Below are positions 28,249 to 52,700 of a stretch of DNA of 64,000 bases, one piece after another; position 1 is the first letter of the stretch; each line of letters begins with the position of its first letter. The stretch covers positions 7,549-71,548 of the forward strand of contig JAKAKS010000019.1 of NCBI GenBank assembly GCA_021813405.1, written 5' to 3'. Source of the DNA: Nitrospirota bacterium (GTDB taxonomy: Bacteria; Nitrospirota; Thermodesulfovibrionia; Thermodesulfovibrionales; JdFR-88). The notes below the pieces were generated by a model. The model was not told the DNA's origin, did not search any database, and saw only the letters and a program-made list of their open reading frames with translations. Position numbers and translations under genes: made by a program.

Positions 28249-28535
28249 TGGGCCCGGATGGAAATAAAGAGAAAAGATTTTCTGGCGAAATAAAAAAGTC
28301 GGCCGGGCAACTGATGAAAGGCCGCAAGGAAAGGTCCTCTTTCTGGCATTACGCCTATGTTATTGGAGTTGGAGGGTGGCTTTTTGTCCTTCCGGTGGTT
28401 GGAGGGGCATACCTTGGGCGTTATCTGGATGGCAGACTGAAGGCCGGGATATCCTGGACCATCACTTTCATCATCATTGGGATAGTAGCGGGCGTTTACA
28501 ACGTCTGGCTTTTTTATTTCAGGAGGCAGGGGTGA
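28245..28535 (+). CDS. AtpZ/AtpI-like small membrane protein (AtpQ-type N-ATPase accessory subunit)
   Basis: Two TM helices with the GGAYLGRYLDGRL motif. GTGA overlap with the a-subunit start. Confidence 0.65.
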
Positions 28536-29200
28536 AAAATATCGGGATTTCGCCGGAGGCGTTCATAAAAATTGGCCCGGCGGTAATAACAAACACCGTC
28601 CTTACCACATGGTTGGTAATGACAGTCATAGCCGTGGCCTGCTGGTTTGCCAAAAGACGGCTTTCCCTGAGGCCTTCGGGGTTCCAGGAGATACTGGAAG
28701 CGGGCCTGATTGCCATAGAAAATACGGTCAGGGATGTGTTGCCCGATGCCGACCCATGGCTGGTTATTCCTGTTATTGGGACCTTGTGGATATTGATAGG
28801 GGTTTCCAATCTGGCGGGCCTTGTCCCCGGGCTAAATACGCCAACCGCGGATATAAATACTACGTTTGCCTTCGCGGTCCTGTCTTTTTCGATGGCGCAT
28901 TTTTTCGGCATAAAAACGCTTGGATTCAAAGGCTATCTCAGGCACTATACAAGGCCATCGTGGGTCTTGCTGCCGTTCCACATTATAGCGGAGGCCACCA
29001 GGACCGTGGCGCTTGCCGTCAGGCTCTTTGGCAACATGCTAAGCGGGGAGATGACCGCCGCGATCATCCTGGGTATAGCGGGGCTGCTGGTACCCATCCC
29101 CTTTGCCCTTCTGCATATTGTCATAGGGATCATACAGGCCTATATTTTTGGCATATTGACACTCGTTTTTATCGCGGGCGGCATTCAGAAAGAAGTGTAA
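28532..29200 (+). CDS. atpB: ATPase a subunit
   Basis: GTG start at 28532. Contains the essential-Arg helix ALAVRLFGNMLSGE. Confidence 0.85.
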   Translation: MKNIGISPEAFIKIGPAVITNTVLTTWLVMTVIAVACWFAKRRLSLRPSGFQEILEAGLIAIENTVRDVLPDADPWLVIPVIGTLWILIGVSNLAGLVPGLNTPTADINTTFAFAVLSFSMAHFFGIKTLGFKGYLRHYTRPSWVLLPFHIIAEATRTVALAVRLFGNMLSGEMTAAIILGIAGLLVPIPFALLHIVIGIIQAYIFGILTLVFIAGGIQKEV

Positions 29201-29215: not shown

Positions 29216-29482
29216 ATGACTTCTTCAACTGTTATCATTGCGGTATCAGTAATAGCGGCGGCTTTTGCAATCGCCATTGGCGCATATTCGCCTGCAAAGG
29301 CGCTGGGGGAAAGCCTTTCAAGGGCACTTGACGCCATTGCACGGCAACCCGAAGCAGGCGCGCAGATAGCCAGAACACTCTTTGTAGGGATGGCCCTGAT
29401 AGAATCCATCGCGATATATGCCTTCGTTATAGCCCTGATCATCCTCTTTGCCAATCCACTTATGAGTTACGTGGCGAAATGA
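29216..29482 (+). CDS. atpE: ATPase c subunit
   Basis: 88 aa hairpin with an ARQPEA loop and the ion-binding helix GMALIESIAIYAFVIALIILF. Confidence 0.9.
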   Translation: MTSSTVIIAVSVIAAAFAIAIGAYSPAKALGESLSRALDAIARQPEAGAQIARTLFVGMALIESIAIYAFVIALIILFANPLMSYVAK

Positions 29483-30270
29483 CATTCAATATCTGGACGT
29501 TCTCATTCCAGGTAATAAATTTTATCGTCCTGCTGCTCATACTGAGAAGACTGCTCTACAGGCCGGTAAAGGAGATTATCGCCAAACGAAGGGATGCCGC
29601 CCAAAAGACATTGGAAGACGCCGGAAGGATGAGACAAGAGGCGCTGGAAATGAAAGAGGCCCAGAAAAGGGAAACGGAAAAACTTAGCGAAATTAAAACT
29701 GAATTCATGGAAAAGATGAGGAGCGAGGCTGAAGAGGAAAGGAAAAAACTGCTCCTTGCTGCTGAAAAAAGCGCCCAGGCCGCAGCCGAAAAAGAAAGGG
29801 CGCTTTTAAATGCTGAAAAAAGCCGGGCCGAAGAGGAGGTCAGGAAACGGGCCGTCCGGATTGTAACAGCCATGGCCTCCAATCTACTAAGTGATATTTC
29901 CAGCGAGTCCCTTCACAAGAGCATTTGGCAAAACCTTTTCAGGGAAGCGGGCTCAATAGTCTCCCGGATTTTAAATATAAGAAAACCATCCTCCGCTTCA
30001 TCCGAAATTGCCCTCGCAATCCGCACCGCATGGCCAATTGGGGAAACAGAGATTGGAAGGTTGCTAAACGCCCTAGAATCCTTCGCTCCCGATATGAAAT
30101 TCACAGCCGGAGAGATTGAGGACAAGGCCTTGATCGCAGGGGTCAGCATAAAGGCTTACGATACGGTCTTTGATTTCTCGCTTGCAGGTCAGCTGGAAGC
30201 TCTGGCCACCAAACTGGAAACAGACGAAACGGTTGGCCGGCTTGCTGGTCAGCCAGCAGCGGGAAGCTGA
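29479..30270 (+). CDS. atpF: ATPase b subunit (long form; no separate delta gene)
   Basis: N-terminal TM helix then a long charged coiled coil. 263 aa. Confidence 0.8.
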   Translation: MTFNIWTFSFQVINFIVLLLILRRLLYRPVKEIIAKRRDAAQKTLEDAGRMRQEALEMKEAQKRETEKLSEIKTEFMEKMRSEAEEERKKLLLAAEKSAQAAAEKERALLNAEKSRAEEEVRKRAVRIVTAMASNLLSDISSESLHKSIWQNLFREAGSIVSRILNIRKPSSASSEIALAIRTAWPIGETEIGRLLNALESFAPDMKFTAGEIEDKALIAGVSIKAYDTVFDFSLAGQLEALATKLETDETVGRLAGQPAAGS

Positions 30271-38882: not shown

Positions 38883-39569
38883 TCAGTCTTTTGCGTTCTG
38901 TTTGTCCCAAACCCTTGCCACTTCGGCCTCTTCAAGGCCAAGCTCCTGCGCAAGCTGCTTTGGGGAGGCATTAGTGTGGTGGATAACTTCCACAAGGTAT
39001 TGGTCGTAATCGATGGCCCTGGCCCAGCACTCCTCGAAATACTGTTTGAAGATATGCGTTAGCCCCTCCGAGACCACGCGGTATCCTTTTTTTGTGGCCT
39101 CCTTGTCGCCTGTCTTTTCCGGCAGACCTATTATTGACACGTCATTGTCCACGGTCATATACCTAAGATCGTGCAGGGAAGGGCATGTCATGTATCTTAT
39201 CTCCGCCCCGGCGTCCTTGTATTGATGGCCGATTTTAAGCCGGTCCTGGAACCTGGGCAGGATGTATTTCAGGCTGACCCCGGCTGCGGCGGACTTCTCG
39301 ATTGCGCTGATGATGTCTTTTGTCCTTTTAATGTCCTGCCCGGAGGGCGGGCGCCCGGTTATCATGCCATGCACCTCTTTTTTTGCATCGGCCATGGAAT
39401 CGACCACCACAAGAAAATATTCAAGCCGCGTAAATGTTCTTGCGGCCCTGTCTATTTCTGTAAGGAGGCGGGACCTGAACCTGCCTTCCTTAATGCTGTA
39501 CAGAAGGATCAGGATAGTGAAGACCAGAAGGACGGATTCCAGTACTAAAAGCGCCAGTTCCAGGTTCAT
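38883..39569 (-). CDS. Hypothetical membrane-anchored protein
   Basis: One N-terminal TM helix, then a 200-aa domain I cannot assign. ATGA overlap with the upstream SBBP gene. Confidence 0.5.
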   Translation of the reverse strand: MNLELALLVLESVLLVFTILILLYSIKEGRFRSRLLTEIDRAARTFTRLEYFLVVVDSMADAKKEVHGMITGRPPSGQDIKRTKDIISAIEKSAAAGVSLKYILPRFQDRLKIGHQYKDAGAEIRYMTCPSLHDLRYMTVDNDVSIIGLPEKTGDKEATKKGYRVVSEGLTHIFKQYFEECWARAIDYDQYLVEVIHHTNASPKQLAQELGLEEAEVARVWDKQNAKD

Positions 39570-42239: not shown

Positions 42240-44099
42240 ATGTTTAAAGGCAGGGTTCTCTTTACCATATTTGCCATCCAGTTCCTGGCGGTTACAAGCG
42301 TTCTGGGCTACCGGGCCTGGCTTAATTCGGACGCGGGCTGCGTTAGGTGCCATTCGGACCGGGCCAGGATGGAGGCGCTTGGCTACCCGGAGCTTTACAC
42401 AACGCATGCCATGGTGGCCAGAGAGAGCGGCCACGCCAACCTGAGCTGCCTTGATTGCCACCTGGGAAACGGCCGGGCCAAAGACTTGAACAAAGCCCAT
42501 AAAGGGATTCTGAAAGCCCTGCTTCTGGATGATAACGGAAACGTGCTAAAAAGGGCGGGGCTTGTAAATGGGGCCATCATCCCCAGAGGCAATGACAGGA
42601 TAAGAGAGCTTCTGCCCATGCTGCCCTCCGGAGATCAGGTTAGAAACGTGCTCTGGCAGGACCACAACCCCGGCACCTTCGATTTCGACCCGGATATAGC
42701 CAGGAAAACCTGCGCCAGAAGCTCCTGCCATCCCACGGAGTTGAAGCAGTTCCTCCATACGGACATGGGCGCCAACTTCCGCCAGCGGACTATGAAGACC
42801 TGGCTTACGCCTTACGGCCCTCACAATTGCGGGCCGTCCTTTGCCGATATGCCGCCAACAGGGCCGCTTTCGCGCAAATCCGGCTTCGATTTCAAAAACA
42901 CTTCCAGGATAAGCGCCGAATGCACCCTGGGGCTTACAAAGCAGCAGGCCATGGACAAGCAGAAGTTCTGCAACATATGCCATCCCGGATGCCTGGATTG
43001 CCATTACAAGCCGGACGCAAACAAGGGCGTACACCATTTTGTAACGCGCCCAACGGCGGAATCCTGCTCCGGGAACGGCAGGGGCACAAGCATCTGCCAT
43101 CCCGGCGCAATGGACAGCAGGCGCGGGGAGGCTTATATAGGCGGCGATTATTCAATCCCTACCGGCATGAAGCCGGACGTGCATTATACGATAGGGCTCA
43201 AGTGCATAGACTGCCATCTGCCCGGCCCTAAAGGCATGGGAGACATGACAAGGAAGGCCGGGTGCCAGGACTGCCACATAGAGGCCGAAGACGCGCTTGC
43301 CAGAAGCGTGCATAAAAGCCTTACATGTGCTGCCTGCCACATCTCGGAGCTGAGGGGTTACCAGCTTACAATCTGGGGGCCAGGCATGGTGGCAGGCAGG
43401 CCAAACCCGTTTAACAAGTATTCGCTTTATTACGGCATCCAGAAGCCGCCTATATTGATGAGGGACCAGAAGGGCCGCTGGATGCCGGTTAAAGTATGGC
43501 CGCACAGCGTTGGCAACTTCAGCAAGGATGTCCCGCCTTCGGGCAAAATACTGTTCAGGTGGCCACACGGCGAGACTCACGATGCCTATTACATAGTTGG
43601 CACGGTATACGGGCCGGTGGCGCAGAGGAACCTTTTGTGGCTGGAGATTGAGCAGGCATCACATCCCTACGGCAAGGCACGCAGCTGCCAGTCCTGCCAT
43701 GCGGGCAAAAACGGGACCCAGACGTCATATTCCAACTGGGAATTTGAGGAGGACCAGGGCACGGATGTCCCCTTCAAAGGCTCCCATAAAATTGTGGCGG
43801 ACTCTGCCGGGATAAGGATAGAGGACCTTAAAAACACCACTCCGATAGTTGTTGAGAAGGGCTGGAAGCTGGGTGATTTTGCCTCCTGGCTTTATTTCAG
43901 AAACAAATGGAGCGCCCCAGGCGACTTTGCCATAAGGACTGACAAACCGGAATATCAAAAACAGTTGCGTGCCTCAAGGCTGGCTGAGGCCCGGCTTAAA
44001 ATCCTTGAAGGGAAACTGAAACCCGGTGACAGAAAGGCCGCCATTGAATTCAGAAGGACGGCCGAAACCGCTATCCACAATCCGGCGGCATGGAAGTAA
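42240..44099 (+). CDS. Membrane-anchored multihaem cytochrome c (8 CxxCH plus 2 atypical motifs)
   Basis: CVRCH, CLDCH, CNICH, CLDCH, CIDCH, CQDCH, CAACH, CQSCH, plus CARSSCH (Cx4CH) and CSGNGRGTSICH (Cx9CH). N-terminal TM helix. Confidence 0.85.
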   Translation: MFKGRVLFTIFAIQFLAVTSVLGYRAWLNSDAGCVRCHSDRARMEALGYPELYTTHAMVARESGHANLSCLDCHLGNGRAKDLNKAHKGILKALLLDDNGNVLKRAGLVNGAIIPRGNDRIRELLPMLPSGDQVRNVLWQDHNPGTFDFDPDIARKTCARSSCHPTELKQFLHTDMGANFRQRTMKTWLTPYGPHNCGPSFADMPPTGPLSRKSGFDFKNTSRISAECTLGLTKQQAMDKQKFCNICHPGCLDCHYKPDANKGVHHFVTRPTAESCSGNGRGTSICHPGAMDSRRGEAYIGGDYSIPTGMKPDVHYTIGLKCIDCHLPGPKGMGDMTRKAGCQDCHIEAEDALARSVHKSLTCAACHISELRGYQLTIWGPGMVAGRPNPFNKYSLYYGIQKPPILMRDQKGRWMPVKVWPHSVGNFSKDVPPSGKILFRWPHGETHDAYYIVGTVYGPVAQRNLLWLEIEQASHPYGKARSCQSCHAGKNGTQTSYSNWEFEEDQGTDVPFKGSHKIVADSAGIRIEDLKNTTPIVVEKGWKLGDFASWLYFRNKWSAPGDFAIRTDKPEYQKQLRASRLAEARLKILEGKLKPGDRKAAIEFRRTAETAIHNPAAWK

Positions 44100-44827: not shown

Positions 44828-45382
44828 GTGGGCGGCATGGGGGTGCCCTTTTTCCCGGAGGACACAACCCTTATGCTATGCGGTTTCCTGGTCTATACCG
44901 GGCACGTGCGCCTTGCCCCGGCGCTGGTGACGGTTTTTCTGGGCGTGCTCATATCGGATTTGTTTCTTTACTGGGTGGGCAGGCATTACGGGCGAAAGGT
45001 GGTCACCAGAAAATGGTTCGGGCGCTTCCTGTCCCCGGCCAGGCTTGAATCACTGGAGGCCAAGTTCAACAAGCGCGGGATATTTTTCATTCTAATAGGG
45101 CGGCACCTGATAGGGCTGCGGACGCAGATATTCCTGGTTTCAGGCATCATGAGAATGTCTGCGATAAAATTTTTGGTGGCTGACGCGCTTACCTCTTTGC
45201 TTACAATAGCTGTAATGGTGTCCATAGGGTACGGCGGCGGGCGCGGGCTGCACAGCGGACTGGGCATTCATGTGCACCGTGCCGAGGTAATCGCGGCAAT
45301 TGTGGTCCTGGCCTTTCTGGCGGGTTATCTTGCGCTCAGGTTGTTTCTCAAAAAAAGGAAAAACAACACCGGCCCCCTGTGA
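44828..45382 (+). CDS. DedA/SNARE-associated family membrane protein (true start probably upstream at a non-canonical codon)
   Basis: GVPFFPEDTTLMLCGFLVYTG...VFLGVLISDLFLYWVGRHYGRK. The frame is open back to 44750 and encodes the expected first helix (NSPYLALFTLLVVGG), but that stretch has no ATG, GTG or TTG. Confidence 0.8.
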   Translation: MGGMGVPFFPEDTTLMLCGFLVYTGHVRLAPALVTVFLGVLISDLFLYWVGRHYGRKVVTRKWFGRFLSPARLESLEAKFNKRGIFFILIGRHLIGLRTQIFLVSGIMRMSAIKFLVADALTSLLTIAVMVSIGYGGGRGLHSGLGIHVHRAEVIAAIVVLAFLAGYLALRLFLKKRKNNTGPL

Positions 45383-45413: not shown

Positions 45414-45484
45414 TCACGGTTCACAAGCCGCGGTTTTTTCACGGTTTTGAGAAGGCAAATTTTTAAGTCTGGCGTTTCACGGTT
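45414..45484 (+). repeat. Three direct copies of TCACGGTT
   Basis: Copies at 45414-45421, 45439-45446 and 45477-45484, plus GTTCAC variants at 45403-45426. Located in the gap between two convergent genes. Confidence 0.6.
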
Positions 45485-45755
45485 AACGGCCGTCGTCCAG
45501 TTCAAGCGGATCGCATAAAAGGCTTTGCACCGGAGCAAGCCTTCCGCAGCGTATGCATACGAATCCCGCATGCTTAAGCTTGTCCGGGCATGTATGGCCC
45601 GCAGGCGAAGGTTTTTTCCCGCAATAAGGGCATTCAATTAATTCAAATGGATGGCACATATGGCCTGCCGCCTGGGTAGCATGGCCGCAGCCGGGGCATT
45701 TGCGTCCGTGGTTGGCGGTGCTGTCAGGCCTGGAAAGAGGCCCTTCCCCGTCCAT
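45483..45755 (-). CDS. Cys/His-rich protein with three zinc-ribbon-like repeats
   Basis: CPGCGH..GHMCHP, CPYCGK..GHTCPD, CIRCGR..LLCDP. Its ATG directly abuts the TAA of the upstream DsbC-like gene (TAAATG). Confidence 0.55.
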   Translation of the reverse strand: MDGEGPLSRPDSTANHGRKCPGCGHATQAAGHMCHPFELIECPYCGKKPSPAGHTCPDKLKHAGFVCIRCGRLAPVQSLLCDPLELDDGR

Positions 45756-46601
45756 TTAGGAGTGCGAAGCTGTTTTGTGGCTGGTTTCCCGGCGGGTTGT
45801 TTTTTTCATGTCCTTGGCGGCCTGGTCTATCAAGGGGACCAGCATGTTCGGGTTCGGGCCAACCACAACCTTGCCGTCGGGCAGTACGATAGAGGGGGTA
45901 CCCGTGATGTGAAGGCTGTCTGCCAGCTTTATGTTCCTGGCTATCTCAGGAGCGGGGCACGAGGCCTTCAGCTGCTTGCCCGCATAAGACTCTTCCAGAA
46001 GCTCCATTGAATGTTTGCACACGATGGCCTTGGCGTTTTCCATGGCTACAGGGCCATGCATGGCAAGCGGGAAAATCTTCAGGTAGAAGACAATATCCGG
46101 CCTTTTCTTTACTATCTGCTTCATCACCTGATGAAGGTTTTTGCAGAACGGTCAGACGGGGTCGTCAAAAACTATCACCTTCAGCCTGGCTTTCGGGTTG
46201 CCAAGCACCAGGGCGTCCTGAAGGGGTATCTTTGAAGGATTGGTATAAACGGCGTTGAGCTTTTCGTCCTCGTCACTGGTAAGGTTGTGCTTGGTTGCGA
46301 TGTCGATAATGGAGCCCTGAACTATGTGCTTTTTTTCGTAGTCCACATAAAGCAGGCCCTTCTGGCCCCTGAATTCGCATTGTATTTCCCACAGCCCGCC
46401 AATCGCGGATTTCTTTACGCTGAGCACCTTGATCTGAGGGTTCAGGGCAGACACCAGATGCTGCGCCTCATTGTCGTTTAACGAATGGCAGCTGCGGCAA
46501 TCGCCTCCGCATGCCCCGCCGCCTGTGCCGAAAGCAAACGCGGGCGAGGAAGCAAAAAGGATTGCCAGTACGGGAAGAGTTAAAAGACTGAATCTGCGCA
46601 T
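45756..46601 (-). CDS. DsbC/DsbG-like thiol:disulfide interchange protein with in-frame UGA (probable Sec) at the active site
   Basis: Track ORFs 46152-46601 and 45756-46127 share one frame. Joined they read ...LKVIVFDDPV-U-PFCKNLHQVMKQIV...ITGTPSIVLPDG. Signal peptide MRRFSLLTLPVLAILFASSPAFA, followed by CGGDCRSCH. Confidence 0.8.
46119..46136 (-). other. SECIS-like hairpin 15 nt downstream of UGA 46154-46152
   Basis: mRNA CUUCAUC-AGGU-GAUGAAG: perfect 7-bp stem with a GGU-containing tetraloop. Confidence 0.5.
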
Positions 46602-46702
46602 GTGATTAATTATATCAAGTAATATTTTTTTTTTGCAATCTGGCGTGCGGGCCCGGATTTTTGCGGCTTGAAAAATCCGCGCACCAAATGATTAAATTGT
46701 TG

Positions 46703-51203: not shown

Positions 51204-52700
51204 GTGAAGCAAGCGCAGGACGCAGTACAGCCGAAAAGCAGAAAAACCCGCGCTGATAAAAAGCTTTTTTCGGAACTGGATGTGCTTTTAAGGGCCCTCG
51301 AAAGGTATTTCGATCCGGAGAATTTTCCGGACCTGCGCTTTCCATCAGGGGCAGACCTGCCAGTTTCGCCATCTAAAACCATGCCGCAGAAATCCGGCGG
51401 GGTTCTGGGTACTCCGCTGCCTGGACGGGATTTTTCAATGGAACTTGCAATGGCCAGGGGCGCTTGCCTCAGGGTAATTGCAGTGCTGGAGGGCCTGATC
51501 CCGGAAAGCCGCCGCAATCTCTACTGGTTCCGCAAATACGCGGAAAAATCGCTGCCTGGCGTGGGGACGGGCGATGACTTTAAAAAATGGATGCACCTGC
51601 AGGAAACGCCTGAGCAGTGCCTCTATCTCCTTTACGACAGTGTCCAGAACATAAAAGAACTGATTTCAGGGGTGCTGGAATCGGGAGCGGTCTCCTGGCC
51701 GGCATTTGCCGGGGTTGGGGGCTCAATAAGCTCAGCCATAAGGGGCAACAAGTGTTTGAACCCTTTTGAAAAAGATATCAACCTGGAATTCGACGTGATT
51801 GAAAATGCCCGGATTTCGGCTGCGGTGAAAAAAATACCAGACAGGCAGCAGATGCGGATTGCCTCGTCCGTGCTTCTGGGGCTTTTCAGGTTTCTGAGGT
51901 ACCTTTCACATGTGGACCTTGCGGCCAGGCGGCCGGCCGGGCTTTATTCAAATTACCTCATATTATTGCTGGTGAAACTGGAAGTTGGCCATTTAATAGA
52001 ATTCCTGGAATCCTCTGCCGACGCGGGCCGCAGGGCCGGCTTAAGCGCCCTTCTTGGCGGGGCCGCGTACCAGTTTTCCATGGAGCGCAAACGGGTTTTC
52101 CGGCAGGAACTGAGGGATTTTCCGGCGCTGCCTGCCGTCAGGCAGAGGGGCAAGATAGAAAACAGCCACGGCATACTTAAAAACCTGATCGAGCATTCCG
52201 TAGTGGCCATAGTGCAGCACTGGGCCCCGGCCGTAAAAGGGGAGGAGATATTCGACAGCTTCGTGACCAAGCGCGAACAATCAATGCGGCTTAGGGAGGA
52301 GATGGCGCTTCTGGGCAGGCTGCTGGCGCTGTTTGAAAAGAAAGGCGGGGGGCAGAGGCACAGGGCCGTGCTTCTGAAGGCGTTAAGAAATTACATGCGC
52401 CACTTTGAAAATTATACGTTCAGGCTCCTGCGGTATGAGGACTACGAGGAGTTCGCCTCTTTTTTTGTGGAGTTGTCCGCCCTTCTGGGGCCGTCTCTTA
52501 AAAAAGGGGAGATGGCGCCAGCCAAAATCATCCCAAAACCGGCCGGGGGATTTGAAAAACTGCTGGAGAAATGCGCACACTTCGCTGTGTTTGTGGACTC
52601 CATGCTGGAGCATATAAACAAAAGGGCGGAGTTGATGGGGGAGCCGATGGACCCCGCAAGAATAGACCGCGCGCTGAAAAAGCTGATCCGCTTCTCTTAG
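51204..52700 (+). CDS. Hypothetical 498-aa soluble, apparently all-alpha protein
   Basis: Long ORF 24 nt after lpdA, with consistent coding look. No motif I recognise. Confidence 0.6.
   Translation: MKQAQDAVQPKSRKTRADKKLFSELDVLLRALERYFDPENFPDLRFPSGADLPVSPSKTMPQKSGGVLGTPLPGRDFSMELAMARGACLRVIAVLEGLIPESRRNLYWFRKYAEKSLPGVGTGDDFKKWMHLQETPEQCLYLLYDSVQNIKELISGVLESGAVSWPAFAGVGGSISSAIRGNKCLNPFEKDINLEFDVIENARISAAVKKIPDRQQMRIASSVLLGLFRFLRYLSHVDLAARRPAGLYSNYLILLLVKLEVGHLIEFLESSADAGRRAGLSALLGGAAYQFSMERKRVFRQELRDFPALPAVRQRGKIENSHGILKNLIEHSVVAIVQHWAPAVKGEEIFDSFVTKREQSMRLREEMALLGRLLALFEKKGGGQRHRAVLLKALRNYMRHFENYTFRLLRYEDYEEFASFFVELSALLGPSLKKGEMAPAKIIPKPAGGFEKLLEKCAHFAVFVDSMLEHINKRAELMGEPMDPARIDRALKKLIRFS

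Follow-up and report, generated by a model that had tools for sequence, protein, structure and literature searches.

Does an in-frame TGA codon at the active site of a putative periplasmic oxidoreductase end translation, or does it encode selenocysteine (Sec)? This question is raised by the minus strand of a 64,000-nucleotide stretch of DNA (referred to below as the window) from contig JAKAKS010000019.1 of a Nitrospirota bacterium (GCA_021813405.1), in which two listed open reading frames (ORFs), 46152-46601 (149 aa, ATG start) and 45756-46127 (123 aa, GTG start), lie in one frame and are separated by the TGA (46152-46154, minus strand) and eight sense codons. The first-pass annotation of the window had read both ORFs as one gene for a DsbC/DsbG-like protein with Sec in its active site and a hairpin resembling a selenocysteine insertion sequence (SECIS) behind the UGA. 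Our analysis leads to the same view: comparison with related sequences indicates that this is very probably a single gene encoding an exported DsbC-family thiol:disulfide oxidoreductase with Sec as its predicted active-site nucleophile (U-P-F-C). The features on which the argument turns are the following.

45756-46601, minus strand: complete predicted selenoprotein gene, 281 codons including one UGA (Sec150), TAA stop at 45756-45758
46278-46469, minus strand: DsbC_N dimerization domain, residues 45-108 (Pfam PF10411, E = 1.1e-10, 41.5 bits versus a cut-off of 25)
45858-46187, minus strand: thioredoxin-fold catalytic domain, residues 139-248, spanning the UGA (Pfam PF13098 Thioredoxin_2, E = 5e-12)
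46143-46154, minus strand: active site U-P-F-C, residues 150-153, aligned with CGYC of DsbC and with the CP[YF]C that every Cys-form homologue carries
45894-45902, minus strand: cis-proline loop G-T-P, residues 234-236, aligned with GTP of DsbC; family-wide, T235 and P236 show little or no variation
46119-46136, minus strand: SECIS-type hairpin CUUCAUC-AGGU-GAUGAAG, a perfect 7-bp stem with a 4-nt loop, starting 15 nt past the UGA, with a UGA-to-loop distance of 22 nt

Gene structure and identity of the encoded protein

Translation of the minus strand from position 46700 down to 45756 gave a single frame with one internal stop only, reading LKVIVFDDPV, the stop and PFCKNLHQVMKQIVKK (directly around the TGA: KVIVFDDPV, the stop and PFCKNLHQVMKQIV). 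This confirmed that the two ORFs share a frame and are one TGA and eight sense codons apart. The expectation that gene callers would split such a gene was borne out as well: the split gene was found in identical form on 10 independent contigs in the public databases, which come from several assemblies, and on every public contig carrying it the gene is called as one product of 149 aa and another of 122 aa.

The joined 281-aa product was searched with Cys substituted at the stop. In addition to the two domains listed above, secondary Pfam matches to DSBA (PF01323) and Thioredoxin_4 (PF13462) were obtained; the presence of the DsbC_N domain identifies the protein as DsbC-type and not DsbA-type. 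The best NCBIfam match was the DsbC equivalog NF008129, with 68.4 bits below its cut-off of 215, followed by DsbG, and the DsbG-like selenoprotein model NF041057 did not match the joined protein at E <= 0.01. The best matches among solved structures were the E. coli and Salmonella DsbC proteins (PDB 1EEJ, 4I5Q), with an alignment that was continuous across the stop. In this alignment VFDDPV[U]PFCKNLH corresponds to VFTDITCGYCHKLH of DsbC and ITGTPSIVLPDG to VSGTPAIVLSNG, Cys195 and Cys215 of the window protein fall on the second Cys pair of DsbC, and ITGTPSIV falls on the cis-Pro loop GTPAIV. The UGA is thereby placed opposite the first, nucleophilic Cys of CGYC, and both the active-site position and the downstream G-T-P element proposed in the first-pass annotation stand. 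DsbC of E. coli and Salmonella has the same two domains, active-site position, GTP cis-Pro loop and second Cys pair, but it is ~24-25% identical, carries C-G-Y-C where the window protein has U-P-F-C and lacks the N-terminal CxxCH segment described below. The AlphaFold2 (AF2) monomer model of P0001, the closest full-length Cys homologue, had a predicted local distance difference test score (pLDDT) of 91.8, and its top Foldseek matches were DsbC, DsbP and DsbG, with DsbC in first place. Judged by these domains and alignments, the predicted window protein is a DsbC-family oxidoreductase in the broad sense and not an equivalog of E. coli DsbC.

Two further observations were made on the family. His182 (about 46056-46058), part of a FPL-x-x-H motif ~30 residues past the active site, is invariant family-wide, including members without CxxCH, whereas the aligned position of E. 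coli DsbC is not a His. P0042 (357 aa), the best profile match (E = 1e-128), aligns with just 54% of the query and has no DsbC_N; its catalytic domain appears to be present in a different, possibly duplicated, arrangement.

Recurrence of the UGA codon among relatives

In 38 full-length database homologues (34-51% identity) the column of the UGA is an invariant Cys, as part of DPxCPxC. Two truncated database entries, P0039 and P0041, stop exactly at this column (ends ...VIVFDDPV and ...VIVFTDPD), and the DNA of their contigs contains an in-frame TGA followed by conserved sequence up to the normal C-terminus. At L001, one of the two loci behind these truncated entries, mutS adjoins the gene as it does in the window. 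A scan of one genome per species yielded 80 related loci, almost all of them in metagenome-assembled genomes (MAGs) of Nitrospirota/Thermodesulfovibrionales/Dissulfurispiraceae, a few others carrying the label Thermodesulfobacteriota or delta proteobacterium. The comparison of Cys and Sec at this column that had been proposed for homologues thus gave Cys in the full-length proteins and, among the 80 loci, TGA in 44 and TGC/TGT in 36. Since a Cys codon was obligatory in one of the two search patterns and the loci kept were ranked by similarity to a Sec form, the resulting TGA share of 55% is not an unbiased frequency. The coding sequence 3' of the active-site column is conserved in all 80 loci. 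The identical TGA column together with the identical hairpin recurs in 48 further sequences, and the median pairwise identity of the Sec forms is ~50%.

Within the Sec forms, codons +1 to +5 after the TGA (P, F/Y, C, A/G, K/R) keep their residues with free wobble positions, the entropy of which reaches 1.96 bits. Because this is the pattern of coding sequence and these codons lie upstream of any possible restart codon, they are translated, which places translation past the UGA. A genome-wide reassignment of UGA is ruled out as the reason, since TGA is the ordinary stop of 8 of the 18 Pfam-supported genes in the window.

Sec and Cys forms are interleaved in a rough neighbor-joining tree, for which parsimony counts a minimum of 14 state changes and which has Sec as its inferred root. 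The hairpin sequence is common to all Sec forms, which makes one origin of Sec with many losses to Cys more parsimonious than repeated gains. Taken with the tree root, this indicates that Sec is probably ancestral in the clade and arose once, with repeated Sec-to-Cys replacements thereafter.

A SECIS-type hairpin specific to TGA-bearing genes

The hairpin noted in the first-pass annotation, a perfect 7-bp stem 15 nt past the UGA with GGU in its loop, is present at 46119-46136. The published consensus for bacterial SECIS (bSECIS) elements comprises a loop of 3-9 nt, a stem of 4-16 bp, a UGA-to-loop distance of 16-37 nt, a minimum free energy (MFE) of <= -7.5 kcal/mol and, within the first two nucleotides of the loop, a G that as a rule precedes another G or a U (PMC13188914). 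With its loop of 4 nt (G at positions 2-3), stem of 7 bp and spacing of 22 nt the window hairpin agrees with this consensus in loop size, stem length, loop G and distance from the UGA, so that its description as SECIS-like was apt; its energy is borderline. The hairpin alone folds with -6.9 kcal/mol, none of 200 shuffled sequences folded as well, and it is part of the MFE fold of the region. In its context (UGA plus 45 nt, 48 nt in total) the energy is -10.7 kcal/mol, which includes a lower stem. This lower stem was rejected as a SECIS component, being present in the window's own fold and not conserved across the Sec forms.

Since the hairpin overlaps the conserved peptide L-H-Q-x-M-K, the Cys-form genes were used as the control for selection on the RNA. 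All 7 bp of the stem form in 48 of 49 TGA-bearing genes versus 3 of 36 Cys-form genes, with a mean of 6.98 of 7 stem pairs in the TGA-bearing (n=44) and 4.2 in the Cys forms. Third-position entropy in codons +6 to +11 is at most 0.16 bit in TGA-bearing genes versus 0.85-1.67 bits in Cys forms, and in the flanking codons of the Sec forms it is 0.9-2.0 bits. The stem is written with the codons CTT-CAT...AAG in 41 of 42 Sec forms, whereas Cys forms vary freely (CTC/CTG/TTG, CAC, AAA). NGGN forms the loop in 48 of 49 TGA-bearing sequences, and the RNAalifold consensus of 41 Sec-form sequences consists of exactly the 7-bp stem and the 4-nt loop and nothing else. The sole Sec form with an altered stem, L047 (3439-3456), has changes on both sides (CUCCAUC/GAUGGAG) at the cost of a Lys-to-Glu replacement; the Sec form L027 has a weakened stem and a GUGA loop. 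Measured by its synonymous sites, the putative SECIS hairpin is under selection in TGA-bearing genes only. Five Cys forms retain it to a large extent, with a perfect hairpin in the TGC-bearing L030, L045 and L048 and 6 of 7 pairs in L016 and L029. All of these are nested beside Sec forms, and their hairpins look like relic SECIS elements following recent Sec-to-Cys replacement.

A permissive Rfam scan of the gene region returned two chance-level matches only and none for the hairpin. On the plus strand, 46119-46136 had been flagged as terminator-like, its reverse complement being followed by GTTTTTG. This reading was discarded, as the site lies inside a minus-strand coding region with no plus-strand unit to end, and the nearest upstream plus-strand gene (VTT domain, ending at 45382) has its own terminator-like site at 45417-45430. 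This flag is probably spurious and due to the AAA/AAC codons that precede the stem.

Alternative explanations and proposed mechanism

Several results weigh against Sec insertion at this codon. ARAGORN and Rfam searches of the 64-kb window found tRNA-Arg and tRNA-Leu only and no tRNA-Sec, which was not found in the flanks of 60 related loci either, and no SelA, SelB or SelD was detected when 20 window ORFs, among them those of matching size, were scanned with Pfam. The energy of the isolated hairpin is slightly weaker than the consensus threshold, its 76-nt context is not unusually stable (z = -1.23), and three of the six Cys forms with an identical LHQEMK peptide also carry the full hairpin, these three adjoining Sec forms in the tree. 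Covariation in the stem is likewise thin, with one compensatory and one broken pair; this is a consequence of a stem that is almost invariant, and the argument for the hairpin rests on the TGA-specific constraint at synonymous sites. The Sec trait itself is documented in Nitrospirae, where selC overlaps selB (PMC13188914, PMC9312934).

If the TGA were a true terminator, the locus would be a pseudogene or a genuinely split gene producing an isolated DsbC_N fragment, with the downstream ORF separate or dead. The output of the gene callers and the GTG or ATG 9-10 codons past the TGA would suit such a reading, but a product restarted there would lack the CxxC motif and the first beta-strand, and the eight codons before the putative restart, which include that of the second active-site Cys, show conserved residues with free wobble. 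Moreover, the sequence past the TGA is open and conserved to the full-length C-terminus and the TGA column has been kept in 44 loci despite divergence to ~50% identity, making a dead or divided gene extremely unlikely. A sequencing or assembly error for TGC/TGT, which a one-base difference would correct to Cys in what is after all a metagenome assembly, has a probability close to nil in view of the identical 149-aa truncated product on 10 contigs from several assemblies and of the dozens of independent MAGs that combine TGA at this column with the TGA-specific hairpin.

Downstream hairpins in general can stimulate stop-codon read-through, and the UGA could be decoded without Sec, for example as near-cognate Cys or Trp. 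The Sec machinery, of which none was seen in the 64-kb window, would then not be needed. This is very unlikely given that the UGA occupies the redox-active Cys position of a thioredoxin-fold enzyme, that GG in the loop and the spacing match the SelB-type bSECIS consensus, that related lineages are documented Sec users, that catalogued selenoprotein families share fold and UxxC, and that the pairing of Sec and Cys at a redox Cys is the standard signature of selenoproteins (PMC13188914). Alternatively, the hairpin could be a mere by-product of the peptide L-H-Q-x-M-K with no function as RNA, in keeping with a stem encoded by conserved residues and with the perfect hairpins of three Cys-form genes. 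Yet Cys forms encoding the same or a similar peptide choose their codons freely, 33 of the 36 Cys forms are without the full stem, the wobble entropy of the stem codons in the Sec forms is near zero, the lone exception among the Sec forms (L047) changes both stem sides together, and those Cys forms in which the hairpin persists group within Sec forms, as fits a relic SECIS. The chance that the hairpin has no RNA function is accordingly minute.

With the UGA read as a Sec codon, the hairpin 15 nt downstream would act as a bacterial SECIS during translation. By analogy with bacterial Sec decoding in general, insertion of selenium would depend on SelB, with the SelB-GTP-Sec-tRNA(Sec) complex binding the apical NGGN loop and delivering Sec at the UGA so that termination is avoided. 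If the protein follows DsbC chemistry, it would dimerize via DsbC_N after export, and its selenolate would attack substrate disulfides to form a mixed selenylsulfide, for whose resolution either Cys153 or a substrate thiol would serve. Recycling of the enzyme would then fall to a membrane reductant, and the net chemistry would be that of a disulfide isomerase/reductase with a more reactive nucleophile.

The N-terminal CxxCH motif and a downstream Cys-rich ORF

The ends of the gene are characterized by the following additional features.

46609-46638, minus strand: promoter-like site TTGCAA-18-TATAAT with TG extension just upstream of the ATG (consensus scan, 10/12 matches; a pattern match only)
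46533-46601, minus strand: predicted signal peptide, residues 1-23 (MRRFSLLTLPVLAILFASSPAFA), recognized by eye from its n-region, h-region and AxA cleavage motif
46485-46511, minus strand: Cys motif C-x3-C-x2-C-H, residues 31-39 (CGGDCRSCH), containing CxxCH (C35-R-S-C38-H39) after the signal peptide
45483-45755, minus strand: uncalled 90-aa Cys-rich ORF starting directly after the TAA of the gene

The N-terminus reads MRRFSLLTLPVLAILFASSPAFA followed by FGTGGGACGGDCRSCH, that is, a signal-peptide-like segment (MRR, a hydrophobic core and AFA) and then the CxxCH, and homologues of the window protein have equivalent N-termini. The first-pass annotation was correct in pointing to CGGDCRSCH as a heme-type CxxCH motif that is unusual for a Dsb protein, and the motif proves to be a conserved family trait. 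It is present in nearly all of the 80 genome loci, in Sec and Cys forms alike, and in 96 of 131 full-length database homologues, where it is always located 106-124 residues before the active site; one subclade of the family lacks it. About one quarter of the CxxCH-bearing proteins, the window protein included, have an extra Cys 3-4 residues upstream. No cytochrome domain was matched by Pfam in the joined window protein, and in the AF2 model of P0001 the CxxCH segment (residues ~25-35) has a block-mean pLDDT of 53-83 only. The invariant His after the second Cys favors heme c attachment over a plain dithiol, and we consider it a tentative and rather doubtful proposition that CxxCH is a true c-type heme site and the family one of heme-carrying DsbC-type selenoproteins.

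Our literature search found no description linking DsbC, CXXCH and selenocysteine. Precedent for a c-type heme (CxxCH) and Sec in one protein is provided by MccSep of Geobacter sulfurreducens (PMC13510729), which is a pentaheme polysulfide reductase with fold and chemistry unrelated to those of the window protein, where heme is only putative. Should CxxCH bind heme, this would be a new cofactor combination in the Dsb system, each dimer holding two hemes at the base of the V and one selenolate per catalytic domain. Such an enzyme might take its electrons from the periplasmic cytochrome pool and not from DsbD, and might act on sulfur/polysulfide or on apocytochrome CxxCH substrates.

The 90-aa ORF encodes ~9 Cys in the pattern CPxC...HxCHP...CPxCG...HxCP[DE]K...FVCxxCGR...LCxP. 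It has no Pfam family and no signal peptide and is uncalled in public records. By tblastn, ORFs with ~50% identity were found immediately past the 3' end of the orthologous Sec-form gene in L010 (3804-4034, E = 9e-17) and L011 (3844-4068, E = 1e-14), in both cases overlapping or abutting its stop codon. From this arrangement the 90-aa ORF is probably co-transcribed with the selenoprotein gene, and its translationally coupled product could be a partner of the putative heme-carrying enzyme.

Genomic neighborhood and other selenoprotein candidates

The gene is flanked by mutS (divergent) and by a gene with a VTT/DedA domain (convergent), and its neighbors also include the ATP synthase genes, enolase and Tex. 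No DsbD/CcdA partner and no cytochrome-maturation gene were seen near it. A 619-aa ORF (42240-44099, plus strand) is located 1.7 kb from the DsbC-like gene; its sole Pfam match is a cytochrome c7-type multiheme domain (residues 313-367), and from this domain it may encode a periplasmic multiheme cytochrome. Two other ORFs, 51204-52700 (plus strand, 498 aa) and 38883-39569 (minus strand, 228 aa), matched no Pfam family (thresholds E <= 1e-3 and 1e-4, respectively).

Other selenoprotein candidates were sought by listing with a script all same-frame ORF pairs in the window that are split by one TGA, and none of these pairs represented a further convincing selenoprotein gene. The pair 28609-29331/29479-30270 (plus strand, TGA at 29329-29331) was rejected as spurious, its first part being a shadow frame of the ATP synthase a subunit, which is encoded by 28376-29200 in another frame; 29479-30270 encodes an ATP synthase b/delta fusion.

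Relationship to known selenoproteins and significance

Thiol:disulfide interchange proteins containing Sec (PF13098, UxxC) as well as DsbG-like and DsbA-like selenoproteins have been predicted since 2004-2006, and selenoprotein catalogues list thiol:disulfide interchange, DsbG-like, DsbA-like and thiol-disulfide isomerase-like families (PMC1794560, PMC1088965, PMC9312934, PMC13188914). Members of the thiol:disulfide interchange group are known from Geobacter metallireducens (WP_011366075.1), Syntrophus aciditrophicus and G. uraniireducens (PMC1794560, PMC9312934, PMC13188914). These proteins, which come from anaerobic bacteria and were compared with the window protein by family and motif description only, share with it PF13098, the UxxC motif with Sec in first position and a prediction based on Sec/Cys pairs and a bSECIS. 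The DsbG-like (NF041057/PF13462) and DsbA-like (PF01323) selenoproteins resemble it in their thioredoxin fold and UxxC. No protein of Geobacter or Syntrophus ranked among the 120 best profile matches, and a literature search linking Geobacter, selenocysteine and disulfide isomerase returned nothing. The window clade differs from the published group in its mostly Nitrospirota/Thermodesulfovibrionales membership, the DsbC_N domain and the N-terminal CxxCH, on which grounds it may form a separate or sister subfamily.

The putative SECIS corresponds to the bSECISearch consensus and to the fdhF SECIS of E. coli as a stem-loop just past the UGA with a small loop carrying G followed by G/U, but it is very short (18 nt), has no conserved lower stem and is marginal in energy when taken alone. 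The fdhF SECIS has a bulged U, which the window hairpin does not contain.

The recoding of this UGA is very probably real, belongs to an already known class and is found in about half of the protein's relatives among Nitrospirota-type bacteria. It bears on annotation: public records show the window gene and at least 44 MAG orthologues in split or truncated form. The label selenoprotein is given to no named database member; all of them appear as "DsbC family protein" or "thiol:disulfide interchange protein DsbC", and no NCBIfam model recognized the joined protein as a selenoprotein. Because of the split records and the missing recognition by NCBIfam, selenoproteome counts for Nitrospirota/Thermodesulfovibrionales are probably underestimates.

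For the biology of the family, a roughly even division into Sec and Cys forms, with a SECIS that is near-invariant and decays once Sec has been replaced, constitutes a clean natural experiment. It is useful for defining the minimal SECIS of these lineages and for asking why a disulfide isomerase keeps or loses Sec; a Sec form of DsbC might act as a faster isomerase/reductase.

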